Both the position numbers and the translations under genes were made by a program. This document shows positions 40,563-64,000 of a DNA stretch of 64,000 bases, one piece after another (positions within the stretch are counted from its first letter, which is position 1; each line of letters begins with the position of its first letter). The stretch is from contig CAYOQL010000006.1 of NCBI GenBank assembly GCA_964406085.1, forward strand, positions 3,657 through 67,656. The letters are read 5' to 3'. Source of the DNA: an uncultured Herminiimonas sp. GTDB taxonomy: Bacteria > Pseudomonadota > Gammaproteobacteria > Burkholderiales > Burkholderiaceae_D. The notes under the pieces were generated by a model that saw only the letters and a program-made list of their open reading frames with translations, was not told where the DNA came from and searched no databases.

Positions 40563-40958
40563 CTATTGTTCGCGTAATGCGCGTCGGTATTGAATCGCCT
40601 CAGCCACGTGAGCTTGACTGATCGTTGCTGCATCACCCAGGTTGGCAATCGTGCGGGCGACTTTCAAGACGCGATGATAGGCGCGCGCAGACCAGTTCAG
40701 GCGCGTCATTGCAGTGCGCAATAACTGTTCGCCTGCTTCATCTGGCTTGCAATGACTGTCCATCTCATTGCCCGTCAATAAATTGTTGTGTTTGCCTTGC
40801 CGTGAGAGTTGTCGGGTTGATGCGTGCGCAACGCGTGCTGCGACATTTTCGGAGGATTCACCGGTCGATTGTTTGAGCAAGTCTTCATGTGCGAGTGCGC
40901 CGACTTGAATTTGCATATCTATGCGATCAAGCAAGGGCCCGGAGATTTTTCCCTGATT
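40563..40958 (-). pseudogene. comM: 3' fragment of comM/yifB (Mg-chelatase-like AAA+ competence protein), truncated by island insertion
   Basis: Translation QGKISGPLLDRIDMQIQV...WSARAYHRVLKVARTIANLGDA...HVAEAIQYR is the ComM C-terminal third. Upstream of it the reading frame becomes unrelated AT-rich sequence. No N-terminal Lon/AAA+ part is present in the window. Confidence 0.85.
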
Positions 40959-41148
40959 GCCCATCCGCAAATTTAAGCTAACTACGAATGTGTACATATT
41001 CAAAGCGCTACGAGATGTCAGCTTAACTGCAAACTGACTCAAACCATCATAGTTAAACTAACTTTGAAAGTTTCCCACCCTTCGACCGTCTAGGTGAATG
41101 TATTTGGTCAAAAGGTGCCTTTTGGTGCGGATGCTCTAAGCTTCATGG

Positions 41149-57228: not shown

Positions 57229-57360
57229 ACGAGCTAAATCGGCTATCGCTAAGCTGTATTTGCTCTAAATTACTTGCTGCATTTTATCTTTCGCTCGTCT
57301 ACCGATTAAACCAATTTGACTTGATTTCACTTCTCTAATCGACAGCCTAGTAACAATTTA

Positions 57361-57463
57361 TGTGACGATTGTTGTTACGATTATTGTGACGATTAAATTA
57401 TGGTCTTTAAGAGGAGAACTGGAGATTTTACTTACTGATTTTGTAACGATTTATGTGACGATT
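57361..57463 (+). repeat. Five direct copies of TGTNACGATT in two 12-bp-phased clusters
   Basis: Copies start at 57361, 57373, 57385, 57442 and 57454 (TGTGACGATT, TGTTACGATT, TGTGACGATT, TGTAACGATT, TGTGACGATT). Confidence 0.9.
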
Positions 57464-57486
57464 ATTTAGTGAGCGCGGAATACAAA

Positions 57487-58557
57487 TCACCCTAGGCGAA
57501 TCAAGAAATCAGACACCTTCAGATGTGTATAACGCTTTAGCATAATGAGCGTCTTATGGCCTGTAATCGCCGCGACTTCCATTTCCTTAAAACCCTTTTC
57601 AAAAAGCCTTGTTGTTGCCTCATGTCTTAGGTCGTGAAACCTAAAATCCTCAATGCCACAAGCTCTACAGGCGTTCTTAAAATCCGTTGTAATCACATCC
57701 GCATTCCTATCGACAATCGAGATTTTAGACGTCCGCGGCATTGCCTTTAGAGCCAGGATTGCACGTGTAGATAATGGCACCTCGCGAGGCTCTCCATTTT
57801 TTGTGTCACGTAAATAAATCAACCTGGTGTCAAGATTGACATCGCCATACTCCAAGCTGGCTATCTCGCCGCGACGCATGGCAGTCTCAGTGGCGAGAAT
57901 GATGAGGTTTTTCAAACGAACGTCACCTACCTTGTCACAATAAGCAAGAAGACGAAGTTCTTCATCTTGGCGAAATCTGCGGTCACGCCCTCTGGCAATC
58001 TTTGGCTTACGGAACATGCTAGTGGGGCTGACGAGCTCCTCATATCCCCAATCTGTCCGTGCGACTTTGTATAGATGAGAGATAAGTGCGAACTCCTTTT
58101 GGAGTGTGCTGCCACTGATACCTTCGCGCAGGCGGTTATCACGATGAAGAGCAAGATGATGTCCTCGTATCGCTAGCAAGGGGAACGCTGCAAGGGGATG
58201 GCGCTGCCAGCGCCTTATGTAGTTTCTTTCAATTGCGGCCCCCTTCTTTTCGGGTGTCACTTCATCCAGATATCGATTTAGCGATTCATATAGTGTGGGT
58301 GTTTCATACGCCAAGTTAGCGAGGCAGGGAATTTTAAAATCCTCGCTCGCAGTCGGTGCCGGCGGTTGTTTTGCTGAATCAGCTAAGCGCAGCCTTCTCT
58401 CAATGGCAGATTGAATTTGGAAAATAAGATTCTCTTGAAAAGAAGCCCATTCTTCGGCCTCCTTCCTTGTTGAGAATGTCTTTGTTAACCGAGGGCAGTC
58501 GGGGAGAGAGATGCGTGCGCGGAATCGGCCTGGATAACGACTGTCGATAGATGCCAT
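57487..58557 (-). CDS. Tyrosine site-specific integrase
   Basis: ATETAMRRGE (Arg I), HDLRHEATT (H-x-x-R) and GHKTLIMLKRYTH (catalytic Tyr region). Internal start MASIDSRY. Confidence 0.85.
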   Translation of the reverse strand: MASIDSRYPGRFRARISLPDCPRLTKTFSTRKEAEEWASFQENLIFQIQSAIERRLRLADSAKQPPAPTASEDFKIPCLANLAYETPTLYESLNRYLDEVTPEKKGAAIERNYIRRWQRHPLAAFPLLAIRGHHLALHRDNRLREGISGSTLQKEFALISHLYKVARTDWGYEELVSPTSMFRKPKIARGRDRRFRQDEELRLLAYCDKVGDVRLKNLIILATETAMRRGEIASLEYGDVNLDTRLIYLRDTKNGEPREVPLSTRAILALKAMPRTSKISIVDRNADVITTDFKNACRACGIEDFRFHDLRHEATTRLFEKGFKEMEVAAITGHKTLIMLKRYTHLKVSDFLIRLG

Positions 58558-58654
58558 ATTTTTATTAACTGAATGTGGGGAGTTTAAAAATAATTGAATA
58601 CCTATTGCGCATTCAAGGCATGTACACGATGTCTGCAACTATTTTTAACAAAGC

Positions 58655-58672
58655 ATCCCATATCTATGGGAT
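58655..58672. promoter_or_regulatory. ATCCCATA-TC-TATGGGAT perfect palindrome, copy 3
   Basis: Located in the divergent integrase/helicase intergenic region. Confidence 0.55.
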
Positions 58673-58769: not shown

Positions 58770-61499
58770 GTGCAACATCTTTCAAAACCAACGGCTTTAG
58801 GTAAATTCTTTACATCGACTACCGACTGGACTCTTACATTCGACGAAAATCGCTTTGTTGTACAGACAAAGGGAAAGAAGCTGGAGGGGGCAACCCTTCT
58901 CCTTGAAAATCTTCGCGTTAAGCGGGGAATTTTATGGTCAACCATCATTATTCCTATTCAAGGCCAGCAAGAAATCCCGCTGGGCGGTCTTTCTAATAGC
59001 GCAGCAAAGAAACTGTTAGCTGAAATCACTACCGTTACTAATACAGTTCGTTATCGGATGAGAGTCGCGGCTCTTATTCAGGATTTCAGTAATGCGATTA
59101 AGCCAGTCGTTGACTGGTCGAGCAAAGCTTTGGCCTCGTGCAAAGTCCAACTGAAAGTTAAGGGTTGGCTCACGCATGAATTTAAGCTGGAGTTAAACAG
59201 CGTAAAGCCGACGGAACTTGCAAGCCTCTTGTCTGAACCTGAAGTTAGGCAGCATCTTATAAAACAGCCGAAAACGACACAGGATGCAGTAAATTTTTGG
59301 ACCCAAAACTTCGATGTTATTGCTGATGGCTTCAATGAGCTTCACGTAACTAAGCAGAAAGAAATACTTAAAGACTTCTTCGATAAAGTTGAAAAATCAC
59401 CACTCACAGAAGAACAACTAAAGGCGGTGGTGTGCTTTGACAATCGTCTATTGTTGGTCGCATCAGCAGGGTCCGGCAAGACCTCCACAATGGTTGCCAA
59501 GGCGGCATACGCCCTTAAGCAAGGCTACTTCGCCCCTGAACAGATGTTGTTGCTGGCATTTAATAACGATGCCGCTGCTGAGTTGCGAGAGCGCATTAAA
59601 GCCAGACTAGTGCCACTGGGTCTGCCAGCCGAGAAAGTCGTTGCTAAAACATTTCATGCCTTTGGTCTTGACATCATTGGCGTAGCTACGGGAAAACGTC
59701 CATCGTTAGCTCCGTGGGTCGAGAACGGCAGGGACATTGAAACGCTACTCGGCATTGTTGATGAGCTTAAAGACAAAGATGCGGCTTTCCGAACAAATTG
59801 GGATATGTTTCGAATAGTTATTGGCCAGGACTTACCCAAGTTTGGTAGAGAAAATGATTCGCCAGATTCATGGAATAAAGAGACGAGTACCGGCGGATTT
59901 TGGTCCCTTAATAATGACGTTGTAAAAAGTAGAGGTGAGCTTCTGATAGCCAACTGGCTTTTCTACAATGGCGTTAATTATAAGTATGAAGCGCCTTACC
60001 AGCATGACACGGCCGACTCCGCGTATAGACAATACAAACCTGATTTCTATTTCCCCGACATCGATGCGTATCTTGAGCATTGGGCGGTAGACGAAAACGG
60101 GCAGCCTCCGAAAGAGTTCGTTGGATACAAAGAAGGGATGGCCTGGAAAAAGGAATTACACGCACGTAATGGCACTCGGCTCCTTGAGACCACGATGGCC
60201 GAATTATGGTCAGGCAAAGCATTCATTTATCTCGCGCAGGAGCTGCCTAAGCTGGGCATTACTTTGGACCCTAATCCGGAACGGCCGGTACCTGGCCGAA
60301 AGCCAATTGAAAATCCGCGACTAGCCAGAACGTTCCGTTCATTCCTCACACACGCCAAAAGTAATCGCCTGACGGCTGAGAACTTACGCGGTCGTTTAAA
60401 TGCTGGAATCGCCGGACAGTTCCGATTTCGGCATGCAATGTTCCTGAGCCTTTTTCAAAGAATATGGGATGGTTGGGAAGAAAAGCTCAAGGCGGAAAAA
60501 AGTATAGATTTCGACGATATGTTGAATCTGGCAAGCGATTGCGTGGCGCAAGGGCAATGGCATAGCCCGTTCGAATTAATCATGGTCGATGAATTCCAAG
60601 ATGCGAGTCAGGCCAGGGCTAGATTGGTATCGGAATTAGTTAAGGGGCCTGGTAAATGTTTATTTGCAGTGGGGGATGACTGGCAGAGCATTAACAGATT
60701 TGCCGGAGCTGATTTAGCAGTAATGACAGAATTTACTAAGACATTCGGACATGCAGTAACGATGAAATTGGAAACAACTTTCAGATGTCCTCAGTCCTTA
60801 TGTGACATCAGCAGTAATTTCGTTCAAAAAAATCCAAAACAAATCAAGAAAAAGGTTCGGGCATATGGCGCAGATGTTTCAGCGCCGGTACATGTCATGC
60901 GCGTTGATGATGAAAACAAAATCAGGTCTGCTCTTAGCCAACGTATAAACGAAATAATATCTACTACGGCAATTAGAGGTCGAAAAATTCAGATTTACAT
61001 CCTTGGTCGCTATAACAAGGAAAATATCTACGTACCTCCCATTTACGACATGGATAAGGCGAACGTGGAGTTTATGACTGTGCACTCTTCTAAGGGGCTT
61101 GAGGCAGATTACATTTTGCTGCCCCGTATGACGTCTGAAATACTTGGTTTTCCTAGCCGCATTGTGGATGACCCTGTTATGCAGTTGGCTATGCCTGGCG
61201 GGGATGATTTCGAGAGCGCTGAGGAAAGGCGTCTGTTCTATGTGGCGCTGACACGTGCTCGAGAAAATGTAACGCTAGTTACGCTTTTGCATAAGGAGTC
61301 GCCATTTATCGTAGAACTGGCTAGAGACTGCAAGCTTCAAATTCAAGATTTTGGAGCGCCTGTGAATCAGAGTATTCGGACGGAAGTTTGTCCGACGTGT
61401 CAGAAGGGGTTCTTAGTTGGAAAAAAAGGGAAGTATGGAAAGTTTCTAGGATGCAGTCAGTTTCCTCGATGTAGGCATACTCAAAAAACAATTCAATGA
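58770..61499 (+). CDS. Helicase IV (HelD)-like UvrD-family helicase with an inserted PD-(D/E)xK-like segment and a C-terminal topoisomerase-type zinc ribbon
   Basis: 909 aa. The N-terminal region and FFDKVEKSPLTEEQLKAVV...LLVASAGSGKTS...LLLAFNNDAAAELRERI run parallel to E. coli HelD as I recall it. VDEFQD and FYVALTRAR are also present. The insert is SRGELLIANWL...YKPDFYFP...AYLEHW. The tail is CPTCQKG...GCSQFPRC. Confidence 0.8.
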   Translation: MQHLSKPTALGKFFTSTTDWTLTFDENRFVVQTKGKKLEGATLLLENLRVKRGILWSTIIIPIQGQQEIPLGGLSNSAAKKLLAEITTVTNTVRYRMRVAALIQDFSNAIKPVVDWSSKALASCKVQLKVKGWLTHEFKLELNSVKPTELASLLSEPEVRQHLIKQPKTTQDAVNFWTQNFDVIADGFNELHVTKQKEILKDFFDKVEKSPLTEEQLKAVVCFDNRLLLVASAGSGKTSTMVAKAAYALKQGYFAPEQMLLLAFNNDAAAELRERIKARLVPLGLPAEKVVAKTFHAFGLDIIGVATGKRPSLAPWVENGRDIETLLGIVDELKDKDAAFRTNWDMFRIVIGQDLPKFGRENDSPDSWNKETSTGGFWSLNNDVVKSRGELLIANWLFYNGVNYKYEAPYQHDTADSAYRQYKPDFYFPDIDAYLEHWAVDENGQPPKEFVGYKEGMAWKKELHARNGTRLLETTMAELWSGKAFIYLAQELPKLGITLDPNPERPVPGRKPIENPRLARTFRSFLTHAKSNRLTAENLRGRLNAGIAGQFRFRHAMFLSLFQRIWDGWEEKLKAEKSIDFDDMLNLASDCVAQGQWHSPFELIMVDEFQDASQARARLVSELVKGPGKCLFAVGDDWQSINRFAGADLAVMTEFTKTFGHAVTMKLETTFRCPQSLCDISSNFVQKNPKQIKKKVRAYGADVSAPVHVMRVDDENKIRSALSQRINEIISTTAIRGRKIQIYILGRYNKENIYVPPIYDMDKANVEFMTVHSSKGLEADYILLPRMTSEILGFPSRIVDDPVMQLAMPGGDDFESAEERRLFYVALTRARENVTLVTLLHKESPFIVELARDCKLQIQDFGAPVNQSIRTEVCPTCQKGFLVGKKGKYGKFLGCSQFPRCRHTQKTIQ

Positions 61500-61555
61500 A
61501 ATGCATACTCAGGCTATTGGCTAGAGTAATAAAGGCGGCGTTGCTAGTTGGGCGC

Positions 61556-61572
61556 ATCCCATAAATATGGGA
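61556..61572. promoter_or_regulatory. ATCCCATA-AA-TATGGGA palindrome, copy 4
   Basis: 12 bp upstream of the TTG start of the DUF4297-like gene. Confidence 0.55.
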
Positions 61573-61583
61573 GCCTGTAAAAA

Positions 61584-62807
61584 TTGCAATCGAGTACTAT
61601 CTTGCAACGATTGCATACACTACGACCTGTGAAACTTAAAAATACGCAACTTACTTTAAATGAGTTGTTAGCAGACATACCTGTTGATGACAATTCAGGA
61701 CAAATCGCCATACAAGGGTTTGAGTATCAGCATTGGTATGCGACATTGCTAATCACTGAGCTTCTTGCATTAGACGAGGACTTCGCCATTGGTGTGGAAG
61801 TTAAGGAGGATATTTGTGTTATCGATTCCGCCGATGCTCCTACCAAGGTTAAATTTGTTCAAGTCAAAACAAATGAAAAATCTGTTGCTTGGACCTTCAA
61901 TGCCCTTCATGCGAAAGGCAAAAAGCTGAAGGACGGTACGCATGCGCCATCAATCCTGTCAAAGTTGTTTCGGCGGCGTATTGATTTTGATGGGCATGAC
62001 AATGAACTGTGGTTTGTGACGAATTCAAGTATCAAAGTCTCTGATACAGAGATGATGACGACCGTTCACGACATGCCTCTCAACAATTTGGAGGTGGCGC
62101 AGCAAGCTGCTTTACGTAAGTCATTGGCTACCGAGTTAATGGTTGATGAATCAATGATTGATTTATCGAACGCTCGCCTCCACACATCTCATCTTCCATT
62201 AGGAAATCAAAAGTTTTATATAAGTGGAAAACTTAGCGCCTTGGTTGAAGAGGGGCATTTGGATATCGAAATATCCAAACCATCTGTGGCCGCAACTTTA
62301 CTTGCTTCTGAAGTTCGGTCGAAAGCAGCTAATACGGGACATTCGAAAAATTTCGAAGACCTAAAGGCAAGTCGATTAATAACCAGAAACAATGTTTTAC
62401 AGACCTTGTTGCAACTAGCAAACCATAAGTCTATTGCTACTGTTTTCAATGACGCACTGCAAGAGCTTAAAACGGAAGCGTTCAACTATCCGTTACGAAA
62501 AAAAATGCAGGCAGAAAAAAATCGTATTCTTCTCGCTGCCTCGGACAGAACAAACGATGAGTTCAAACGCCAGATAGAAACGCTTTCTAAGTGTTATTCA
62601 ATAATTCAATCAAGCCATTCCCACGACTGTAAAAGCTTTGGGGATTTAATTAAGGCAGTCTCCGATAAAGCCATGACTGAACAATCCGACGTTTTCTCAA
62701 CGGTAGAAATGCCCTATCTATATGCACTCACAATGGTGGTAATACATGGAATCGAAATCGACGTACTCAATATTGCGCCTTGTGCGCAATCTAAGGACGC
62801 GCAATGA
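61584..62807 (+). CDS. DUF4297/Cap4-type nuclease domain protein (LmuA-like)
   Basis: 407 aa. IQGFEYQHWY, VEVKEDICVID and VKFVQVKT fit the DUF4297 PD-(D/E)xK N-terminal pattern. The TTG start is uncertain. Confidence 0.6.
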   Translation: MQSSTILQRLHTLRPVKLKNTQLTLNELLADIPVDDNSGQIAIQGFEYQHWYATLLITELLALDEDFAIGVEVKEDICVIDSADAPTKVKFVQVKTNEKSVAWTFNALHAKGKKLKDGTHAPSILSKLFRRRIDFDGHDNELWFVTNSSIKVSDTEMMTTVHDMPLNNLEVAQQAALRKSLATELMVDESMIDLSNARLHTSHLPLGNQKFYISGKLSALVEEGHLDIEISKPSVAATLLASEVRSKAANTGHSKNFEDLKASRLITRNNVLQTLLQLANHKSIATVFNDALQELKTEAFNYPLRKKMQAEKNRILLAASDRTNDEFKRQIETLSKCYSIIQSSHSHDCKSFGDLIKAVSDKAMTEQSDVFSTVEMPYLYALTMVVIHGIEIDVLNIAPCAQSKDAQ

Positions 62808-64000
62808 CTCGGCGCGTGACCTTCAAAACTCTTTGGCTCGTATCCGCAGTGGAACAGAAAGCAAAGAAGCAAACATTCTCCAGCGGAAAAACGATTCTTC
62901 ACGGGAAGAACGGGACAGGTAAATCTCGAATTATCAAGAATTTATTTTGGACTTTAGGCTGTAGTCCTGCAAAGCATATGCCGCCAGGTTGGGACCCGGA
63001 TACCATTGGCGCGCTCGAATTCACCTTTGATGGCAAAACGTTTGTCGTGGTACGAAAGGCGAAAACATTAGGCCTATTTGACGACCAAGGGTTACTCATT
63101 GAAGCAGTCGATAACTTAACTGCCTGGGATAGGTTTATTGCTCATAAATTTGGATACATGTTGATGCTGCAACGGCCAGGAACCACAAAACAAAGTAGTG
63201 CTGGTATAGATTATCTGACATTGCCCTTTTACATTGACCAAGACGGAAGCTGGGGCGAGCACTGGGATACATACACTAACCTTGCTCAATTTTCAAAATG
63301 GCAAAAACCAGTATTTGAGGCGTTCATTGGTCTACGGCCCAATGCCTATTTCACGGCTTATCAGAAGTGCCAGCTCGTGCGCAGCCAACGAACTGAGCTA
63401 CAAAAGCAACTCAACACGGAAGCCAATGCTTTTCAGCGCGTGCGAGAACTTCTGCCAAAGAATGTGCCGGTGATTGACTCGGAAACTTTTGAGCAAGATT
63501 TGGTGGGTCTTGGTTTGGAAGCAAAGTCATTGCAGTCAAAGCAAAATGAACTTCGCGCGCGAGTAATCACTGCAACTGGAATGAAAGAGAAGGTGATTGC
63601 TGAGCTAGCTTTGGCGACATCTTCTCTGAAAGAAGTTTCAGATGACCTTGGCTACCTTAGTGGGATTGATGATGCTCTGGAATGCCCGACATGCGGAACC
63701 GTGCATACGGAGTCCTTTCATGGAAGATTAAACTTAGCTCAAGATGTGGATGCCTTGGTGGCGTTAATCGCTGAGCTTCAGAATGAAAAAGGAAAAATTA
63801 CTTTTCAGTTGCAAAAGCTTAAGACTGAATATGTAGAAGTTGTTGGATATATTCAGGCACTCAACGAACGAATGACTGCGGTGCAGTCGAATCTTAAGGC
63901 CGAGAAACTTCTATTCGAAGCTCATAGCGTTCAGACTCTGCACAATGCATTTGCAGCAGTCACTGCCGACTTAGTTAAAGACATTGCTGAGCTTGAGTAT
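62803..64000 (+). CDS. SMC/ABC-like ATPase with coiled coil and CxxC hook-like motif (LmuB-like); 3' end outside window and absent from the ORF track
   Basis: My translation from the ATG at 62803 (ATGA overlap with the previous gene) stays open to base 64000. It reads MTRRVTFKTLWL...ILHGKNGTGKSRIIKNLFWTLGC (Walker A), then long heptad-like QKQL/ELQ segments and ECPTCGTVH. Confidence 0.65.

Follow-up and report, generated by a model that had tools for sequence, protein, structure and literature searches.

The right-hand end of the 64,000-nucleotide stretch analysed here (the window), from contig CAYOQL010000006.1 of an uncultured Herminiimonas sp., carries two overlapping genes, lmuA and lmuB, which encode a nuclease and an ATPase. 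We conclude with high confidence that they form an intact Lamassu system, a kind of anti-phage/anti-plasmid defence, of type I (two-gene, 'short', clade S) and carried as transposon cargo. The features of the pair are listed below; the part of lmuB beyond position 64000 was read from a further contig, L001.

61584..62807, forward strand: lmuA, 407 amino acids, TTG start, with an N-terminal Cap4/DUF4297 domain (double-stranded DNA nuclease) followed by the helical C-terminal domain of LmuA
61695..62327, forward strand: Cap4-type PD-(D/E)xK nuclease domain of LmuA, residues 38-248, matched by Pfam and by fold
62328..62804, forward strand: C-terminal helical domain of LmuA, residues ~249-407, covered by PADLOC LmuA profiles and all-helical in the AlphaFold2 model
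62804..62807, forward strand: ATGA overlap of the lmuB start (ATG, 62804-62806) and the lmuA stop (TGA, 62805-62807)
62804..64000, forward strand: first 399 of the 572 codons of lmuB, a short SMC/Rad50-like ATPase sensor, which ends at window-equivalent position 64522 (L001:11221-12939)
62903..62926, forward strand: Walker A motif GKNGTGKS of LmuB, residues 34-41, with G34, N36, T38, G39, K40 and S41 invariant in 20 homologues
63341..64000, forward strand: antiparallel coiled-coil arm of LmuB, residues 180-434 (to 399 within the window), with helices at 180-216, 226-287, 305-409 and 414-434
63683..63694, forward strand: predicted zinc hook CPTC of LmuB, residues 294-297, in the turn between two long helices, invariant in 20 homologues

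The second open reading frame (ORF) starts with the ATG at 62804 and runs for 399 codons to 64000 without a stop in the window. An earlier reading of the letters alone, made without database searches (the sequence-only reading), had described both this stop-free frame and the ATGA overlap correctly but had placed the start at 62803. An AAGGA Shine-Dalgarno sequence (62793-62797) lies 6 nt 5' of the ATG, and the overlap implies that translation of lmuA and lmuB is probably coupled. The two genes lie on the same strand, as expected of a single Lamassu operon. Three assembly contigs (L001-L003) were found to encode a protein identical to LmuA. L001 has zero mismatches to the window across an overlap of 12,417 bp, and L002 and L003 likewise have zero mismatches to L001 downstream; being mismatch-free, L001 could serve to continue the sequence past the window edge (adding 51583 to an L001 coordinate gives the window coordinate). 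It completes the ORF to 572 amino acids, in agreement with the earlier statement that the ATPase gene runs off the window. Extension past 64000, which had been proposed as a check, gave the full ATPase and no third gene: 191 bp separate the lmuB stop from a transposon terminus, after which comes a truncated comM gene.

For LmuA, the earlier assignment of the 407-residue product as a DUF4297/Cap4-type nuclease held up in comparisons with profile hidden Markov models. Pfam Cap4_nuclease (PF14130) matched residues 38-248 (E=1e-28), and the 370-position PADLOC LmuA profile PDLC03849 matched residues 27-384, including the C-terminal domain (2.2e-54). Eleven of the 15 PADLOC families matched by the protein are LmuA profiles; HamA profiles match at 6e-10 to ~1e-9. 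Residues E72, K74, D76, D81, Q93 and K95 (VEVKED...FxQVK) are invariant in the LmuA alignment, and the FxQVK block, here FCQVK, aligns with FVQVK of HamA (8zue). We infer that K95 of this block is the catalytic lysine, equivalent to K59 of Bacillus cellulasensis LmuA and K57 of Vibrio cholerae LmuA; a direct mapping onto these residues is impossible because the solved LmuA proteins go undetected by sequence or profile.

Full-length LmuB matched the PADLOC LmuB profile PDLC00249 over residues 3-553 (2.5e-122, 407 bits), and the fragment encoded in the window alone reached 1e-87. Both proteins are thus matched over nearly their full lengths by the LmuA and LmuB profiles, the comparison that the sequence-only reading had suggested, and the ATPase falls with LmuB and not with RecF, RecN or AbiL, which had been named as alternatives. 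In a search of PDB sequences, the sole significant match, at E=4.7e-10, was 9ux7 ('Lamassu protein LmuB'); five further matches have E >= 0.23. An AlphaFold2 model of LmuB (20 sequences, mean predicted local distance difference test score [pLDDT] 85) consists of an N-terminal head half, an antiparallel coiled coil (180-287 and 305-434) and a C-terminal head half; the coiled-coil-like stretches noticed earlier correspond to its long helices. A Foldseek comparison of the model with the PDB ranked first 9ux7_A (6.6e-20), from the type I LmuAB-DNA complex. Type II LmuB structures (9hqu, 9hqx, 9uxh, 9nyg) took six of ranks 2-8 (9hqu 9.6e-16, 9uxh 1e-14) and 9a6c rank 7, while Rad50, SMC, MukB and JetC ranked below the type II LmuBs. 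Hence 9ux7 is the only LmuB found by sequence and the first by fold, which places this LmuB nearer to the validated type I protein than to type II LmuB.

The ATPase and hook motifs were examined in an alignment of 20 of the 212 LmuB homologues returned by a homologue search. Besides the Walker A motif, already recognised in the sequence-only reading, the DQDG block (145-148), GGS (455-457) of the signature motif GGSS (455-458), and H515-Q516 of the H-loop are invariant or nearly so. The Walker B motif PFVVDT (484-489), within the conserved region FPFVVDTPQQSGQD (483-496), is deviant and fits the form hhhhD[Q/S/T/E] given for short Lamassu (PMC12663957). The CPTC motif, earlier called hook-like, does lie in a turn between helices and aligns with CQYC of B. 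cellulasensis LmuB in the PDB sequence alignment (9ux7); CQYC (residues 285-288) is the zinc hook of that protein (10.1101/2025.06.23.660979). Around it, ECPTCG (293-298), H301 and SFH (304-306) are likewise invariant or nearly so. By homology, CPTC is predicted to be a zinc hook at the apex of the LmuB coiled coil, with zinc binding and dimerisation as its likely functions. The order of the motifs, with Walker A near the N terminus and signature, Walker B and H-loop towards the C terminus on the far side of a short coiled coil, is that of LmuB in general, which in short Lamassu totals ~600 amino acids.

The 212 homologues include many from Beta- and Gammaproteobacteria, the nearest being 58% identical, and nearly all the named ones are labelled 'hypothetical protein'. 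We scanned genome contigs, one genome per species, for related loci. With the single LmuB protein as query no relative was confirmed, whereas a scan guided by a profile of the LmuB alignment succeeded and yielded 47 loci with LmuB relatives of 23-58% identity. The genera represented include Massilia, Herbaspirillum, Thiobacillus, Nitrosospira, Pseudomonas, Luteimonas, Rhizobium, Ruegeria, Acinetobacter, Serratia and Clostridium, and Yersinia pestis is also among them. At 45 of the 47 loci, an ORF for a LmuA homologue ends 0-60 nt 5' of lmuB, and the closest loci (L004-L020), all but L010, have the same 4-nt overlap of lmuA and lmuB. A LmuA homologue was not found at two of the 47 loci; the match at L041 begins 75 bp from a contig end. 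When the other ORFs within 3 kb were clustered across loci, no family was common to more than four of them. Since the pair abuts at 45 of 47 loci and no other neighbour is conserved, lmuAB is a self-contained two-gene module, and neither LmuC nor the helicase gene found upstream in the window is linked to it. The two-gene layout is thus shared by 45 loci or more, which range from Oxalobacteraceae to Yersinia, Acinetobacter, Rhizobium and Clostridium. A Megablast search of 61500-64000 against PLSDB plasmids gave no match. Judged by its sequence, the Herminiimonas pair is a divergent member of a known system type, with at most 58% identity to any relative found.

The two-gene form has a clear precedent. 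Lamassu was first reported as a two-gene system in 2018 (cited in 10.1101/2025.06.23.660979); this original lmuA-lmuB pair is now called type I, and systems that also contain lmuC, such as DdmABC, are type II (10.1101/2025.06.23.660979). Haudiquet et al. attribute type I to loss of LmuC in clade S of short Lamassu (PMC12663957). Here, the 4-nt overlap leaves no space for LmuC between lmuA and lmuB, no PADLOC LmuC model matched any of the island proteins scanned, and the lmuA-lmuC-lmuB order of type II is not present. The sequence-only reading was therefore right that a middle LmuC-like gene is lacking, but this is no oddity: type I is an established form (10.1101/2025.06.23.660979; PMC12663957), and since the two-gene form is conserved and shares no other neighbour, the absence of LmuC is a defining trait of type I (clade S). 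The hook motif, too, is a standard feature of type I. Likewise, the proposed Lamassu logic of a nuclease effector with an SMC-like ATPase proved correct by profiles and fold, but DdmABC, to which it had been related, is the three-gene type II relative and not the closest model. Membership of the locus in Lamassu rests on its gene structure, its profile and fold family, its intact motifs, its two-gene synteny and its mobile-element context.

The mobile element is a 23,756-bp insert (40958 to window-equivalent 64713) that splits the comM gene of Herminiimonas into two parts, as follows.

40563-41042, reverse strand: comM 3' fragment, encoding Mg_chelatase positions 182-205 and Mg_chelatase_C
L001:13083-14264, reverse strand: comM 5' fragment, encoding a 393-amino-acid ComM/Mg-chelatase-like protein without its C terminus, with ChlI and Mg_chelatase positions 1-182; convergent to lmuB

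The translations of the two fragments join as ...DVIARYQ|GKISGPLLDRID... The insert is flanked by a 5-bp direct duplication, CTGAT, whose outer limits are window position 40953 and window-equivalent position 64718 (L001:13131-13135), and its ends are formed by the terminal inverted repeats TGCCCATC. Such a 5-bp duplication together with terminal inverted repeats is a hallmark of Tn7-like transposition. The element encodes TnsB, TniB and two TniQ proteins; its tns genes are placed centrally between two blocks of cargo, and lmuAB occupies one end. The G+C content is 45.7% for the insert versus 54.5% for the left chromosomal flank. Defence systems are described as common cargo of Tn7-like transposons (PMC8649781); that paper, by Benler et al., mentions neither Lamassu nor comM. 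With its 5-bp target duplication, the element has clear boundaries and exemplifies a Tn7-like transposon that targets comM and combines Lamassu, Gabija and TIR cargo.

Upstream of lmuA, the element also carries a helicase gene, which has to be considered as a possible component of the system.

58770-61499, forward strand: helicase IV-like superfamily 1 (SF1) helicase, 909 amino acids, whose UvrD N-terminal domain contains a large insertion and whose C terminus bears a C4 zinc ribbon of the topoisomerase-I type

It matches NCBIfam DNA helicase IV at 4e-112, below the cut-off, and Pfam UvrD-helicase at 8.5e-44. The gene lies only 84 bp 5' of lmuA in the same orientation, the interval shows no terminator-like site, and the same palindrome precedes both genes. 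Moreover, the best fold match of the LmuA nuclease domain is HamA of Hachiman (8zue_A, 2.6e-7), and PADLOC HamA models match LmuA at ~1e-9. The pair of genes could therefore be read as a Hachiman-like helicase with a HamA-like nuclease, or the locus as a three-gene helicase-LmuA-LmuB variant. We consider either very improbable. LmuA scores 2.2e-54 with LmuA profiles versus 6e-10 with those of HamA, and the adjoining helicase is of the SF1 UvrD/helicase IV type, whereas HamB, the partner of HamA, is a superfamily 2 helicase; the best 25 PADLOC matches of the helicase, out of 62 families, are to GajB and RTasHel, with no HamB among them. The HamA and HamB combination of Hachiman is not what lies here. 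No helicase family is conserved beside the 45 LmuAB relatives. On synteny and profile scores we reject the helicase as a member of the system.

A type II (DdmABC-like) Lamassu whose LmuC was missed, lies elsewhere or was recently lost, leaving a crippled system, is less probable again. Type II is the dominant form of Lamassu, and its LmuBs are strong fold matches too. This explanation is nevertheless largely refuted: besides the lack of room both between the genes and in the 191 bp that follow lmuB, and the lack of LmuC matches among the island proteins scanned, the 45 related loci from many genera have the same abutting pair with no common third gene, the best match by sequence and by fold is the type I LmuB 9ux7, and the ATPase and hook motifs are all intact.

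Just as slight is the chance that the pair is a Rad50/SbcC-like repair ATPase with a partner nuclease, serving the cell or the transposon and not defence, for although the LmuB fold resembles Rad50/SbcC/SMC heads (7zr1, 5xei, 7yzp), NCBIfam returns weak Rad50/SMC matches and an origin of Lamassu from SbcCD has been proposed (PMC12663957), those matches reach at most 42 bits against cut-offs of 300-1087 and compare with 407 bits for the LmuB profile, the partner is a Cap4-type nuclease with a LmuA C-terminal domain and not an Mre11/SbcD phosphoesterase, the genes sit in a low-G+C mobile element beside Gabija and TIR defence genes, and the neighbourhood differs from genome to genome, as it does for mobile defence modules.

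Several observations weigh against the assignment of the pair to type I Lamassu. For LmuB, Pfam searched with the full-length protein at E<=10 returned no LmuB-specific family and only a sub-threshold SMC_N P-loop match, and NCBIfam returned nothing beyond the Rad50/SMC-type matches just mentioned. Nor did this Pfam search return DUF3732, a comparison that the sequence-only reading had suggested as a check. DUF3732 was the Pfam label for LmuB in Lamassu as first annotated; the classifications now in use rely on LmuB profiles made for the purpose and do not define LmuB by a DUF3732 match. In the fold alignment, LmuB is only ~18% identical to B. cellulasensis LmuB, and details of mechanism such as ATP dependence and the docking mode of LmuA may therefore differ.

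The points concerning LmuA are more numerous. Its AlphaFold2 model has a thin basis (10 sequences, pLDDT 76.5, residues 1-43 and 391-407 unmodelled). Apart from HamA, its fold matches include Cap4 (6wam, 6vm6 and 6vm5, ~1e-4), and V. cholerae LmuA (9uxh_C) gives a weak whole-chain match (403 columns, E=0.011, probability 0.93, template modelling score 0.32); B. cellulasensis LmuA is absent from the top 50 fold matches. Searching the PDB by sequence and profile found no solved LmuA, only HamA 8zue (4e-4) and noise, which reflects the divergence of this LmuA, and no LmuA model was obtained in the NCBIfam scan. The start of lmuA carries an uncertainty of at most ~15 codons, with TTG 61584, TTG 61602, TTG 61611 and GTG 61629 as candidates; a GGGAG Shine-Dalgarno-like sequence (61569-61573) lies ahead of the first TTG, and several LmuA homologues are unable to extend N-terminally past the equivalent of residue 15-22. 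Finally, no sigma-70-like promoter that could serve lmuA was found in 61200-62000.

A mechanism for this type I Lamassu can be proposed by homology to the B. cellulasensis LmuAB complex and to the LmuACB complexes of V. cholerae and Salmonella enterica. B. cellulasensis LmuAB is a 2:1 LmuB:LmuA complex in which LmuB dimerises by its coiled coils and zinc hook and LmuA is kept monomeric, anchored through its C-terminal domain to the head-distal coiled coil; its nuclease activity is stimulated by double-stranded DNA ends and needs the Walker A lysine, and activation consists of LmuA tetramerisation (10.1101/2025.06.23.660979). In Herminiimonas, two LmuB protomers would accordingly be expected to dimerise through their coiled coils and the CPTC hook, and a single LmuA monomer would be kept inactive, its C-terminal domain bound to the head-distal part of the coiled coils. 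Contact of the LmuB ATPase heads with free double-stranded DNA ends or with replication intermediates of an invading phage or plasmid would release LmuA. The freed nuclease would tetramerise through its C-terminal domain, which would assemble the Cap4-type active site, and cellular and invader DNA would be degraded non-specifically, aborting the infection. The two proposed roles of the LmuA C-terminal domain, docking on the LmuB coiled coils and driving tetramerisation, follow the B. cellulasensis complex (10.1101/2025.06.23.660979), and we infer by the same analogy the 1:2 LmuA:LmuB stoichiometry, the DNA-end trigger and the abortive-infection outcome.

The closest known system is indeed type I LmuAB of B. 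cellulasensis (9ux7/9ux8). It has the same order, lmuA then lmuB, without lmuC, and its LmuA likewise combines a Cap4/DUF4297 nuclease with a helical C-terminal domain. The two LmuBs are similar in length (562 amino acids in B. cellulasensis, 572 here), both have a Walker A motif near residue 37-40, and both possess a short coiled coil, a deviant Walker B motif and a single CxxC at the apex. They differ in host, Bacillus as opposed to a betaproteobacterium, and the present copy is cargo of a Tn7-like transposon; the two LmuAs are too divergent for detection by sequence or profile. The type II DdmABC/LmuACB systems of V. cholerae (9uxh, 9nyg) and S. enterica (9hqu, 9hqx) likewise pair an SMC-like LmuB sensor with a Cap4-nuclease LmuA, and they share the proposed logic in which monomeric LmuA is sequestered, DNA ends are sensed and LmuA tetramerises. 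In contrast to the present locus, they have lmuC (ddmB) between lmuA and lmuB and a longer LmuB (~630-650 amino acids), and V. cholerae LmuB lacks a zinc hook (PMC12663957), whereas the hook is invariant here. Head arrangement and LmuA docking mode also differ from type I to type II (10.1101/2025.06.23.660979).

More distant parallels concern the single proteins. Rad50-Mre11/SbcCD, from which Lamassu has been proposed to derive (PMC12663957), resembles LmuB in its split ABC-type ATPase head, antiparallel coiled coil and CxxC zinc hook, and resembles Lamassu in recognising DNA ends. Rad50-Mre11/SbcCD has far longer coiled coils and serves in housekeeping, not as mobile defence cargo, and the Mre11/SbcD phosphoesterase is bound at the heads, whereas the Cap4 nuclease of Lamassu is bound at the coiled coil. 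HamA (8zue) and CBASS Cap4 (6wam, 6vm6, 6vm5) have the same PD-(D/E)xK fold (DUF4297/DUF1837-type) as the LmuA N terminus, but the partner of HamA is the HamB helicase and Cap4 has a cyclic-oligonucleotide sensor, SAVED, whereas the regulatory module here is made up of the LmuA C-terminal domain and LmuB.

Lamassu of this type is thus already known in its two-gene architecture and its mechanism, with solved structures, and the locus would be annotated automatically by the standard profiles for finding defence systems. What our analysis adds is a divergent branch of type I Lamassu from betaproteobacteria, in which the ECPTCG hook is invariant.

A repeated palindrome connects lmuA with other cargo of the transposon.

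61556-61572, no strand assigned: palindrome ATCCCATAAATATGGGA, 12 nt before the lmuA TTG and overlapping GGGAG; one of four related copies

The 17-bp palindrome ATCCCATAnnTATGGGA occurs at four loci (44481, 44802, 58655 and 61556), all intergenic and all within the transposon, and allowing up to 2 mismatches the window contains six matches at these four loci versus 0.01 expected by chance. Genes with an upstream copy are those for the ThsB-like TIR protein, the helicase and LmuA, and the copy at 58655 is situated in the divergent intergenic region between the recombinase and helicase genes. The motif is found neither in the 41 kb of chromosomal flank within the window nor upstream of lmuA at the 45 other loci, and it therefore belongs to the element and not to Lamassu. 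The sequence-only reading had placed the copy at 61556 at the promoter of the pair. The palindrome is a real repeated motif, but its role as lmuA promoter is unsupported in view of the lack of a sigma-70-like site around it, and RNA folding of the region is unexceptional (z of -0.8 and -1.4). Speculatively, and with a low probability in our estimate, the palindrome might be a common operator for a transposon-encoded regulator, such as the XRE-type helix-turn-helix protein (49139-49609), that co-ordinates unrelated defence cargo, or a recombination site at which the adjacent tyrosine recombinase (57487-58638) shuffles cargo cassettes. As an operator at lmuA, it might let the regulator occlude the Shine-Dalgarno sequence or a promoter; this, too, is speculative. 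If either function were true, this Lamassu copy would be part of a regulated or modular cargo architecture and not a free-standing operon.

The transposon carries further genes, among them those for a HAD_SAK_2 protein, the tyrosine recombinase and the XRE-type protein. A complete Gabija system is encoded on the reverse strand (45627-48759), with GajA of 572 amino acids (PDLC04168, 6.4e-235) and GajB of 498 amino acids (PDLC04173, 6.5e-185). The region 42365-45442, also on the reverse strand, includes two TIR genes: a ThsB-like gene at 43682-44380 (PDLC00424, 1.7e-117) and a gene with a TIR_2 match at 44924-45442. Beside them is the gene for a PIN_12 protein of 377 amino acids (42365-43498, reverse strand). 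No recognisable ThsA (SIR2/SLOG) was found beside the TIR genes, and the TIR/PIN_12 region may represent a Thoeris-like module that is incomplete or a variant. Between the two TIR genes, a small ORF (44617-44742, reverse strand), as read from the sequence, encodes a signal-peptide-like product with a His/Cys-rich tail, MKKIFMALLLTSIASFAFAHSGGTDSNGCHNDRKNGGYHCH. An element with GGCCGATAGCGGAC is repeated in this region at 43552-43578, 44508-44534 and 44855-44881, two of the copies standing shortly after ATCCCAT palindromes; the copy at 43552-43578 falls between the PIN and TIR genes and is a palindrome with a 10-bp stem (GTCCGCTATC...GATAGCGGAC).

In the position of tnsA, directly 5' of the TnsB-like gene and overlapping the helix-turn-helix gene, an ORF of 311 amino acids (49587-50522, forward strand) has no Pfam, NCBIfam or PADLOC match. 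Genes of the chromosomal flank include those for a P-II protein, a 5'-3' exonuclease and a TorF porin. They confirm Herminiimonas as the host: the P-II protein has the same sequence as its Herminiimonas counterpart, and the exonuclease and porin belong to 90%-identity clusters that include proteins of H. aquatilis and Herminiimonas sp. Six 12-nt tandem-like units, GTRACRATTRTT, were observed at 57350-57466 and at no other place in the window; they make up three 24-nt repeats, flanked by a 167-amino-acid ORF and by the tyrosine recombinase gene's 3' end. We rejected them as a transposon end, given that the window contains no inverted copies elsewhere and that the split comM gene puts the ends at 40958 and window-equivalent 64713. 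The units may be iterons or protein-binding sites.

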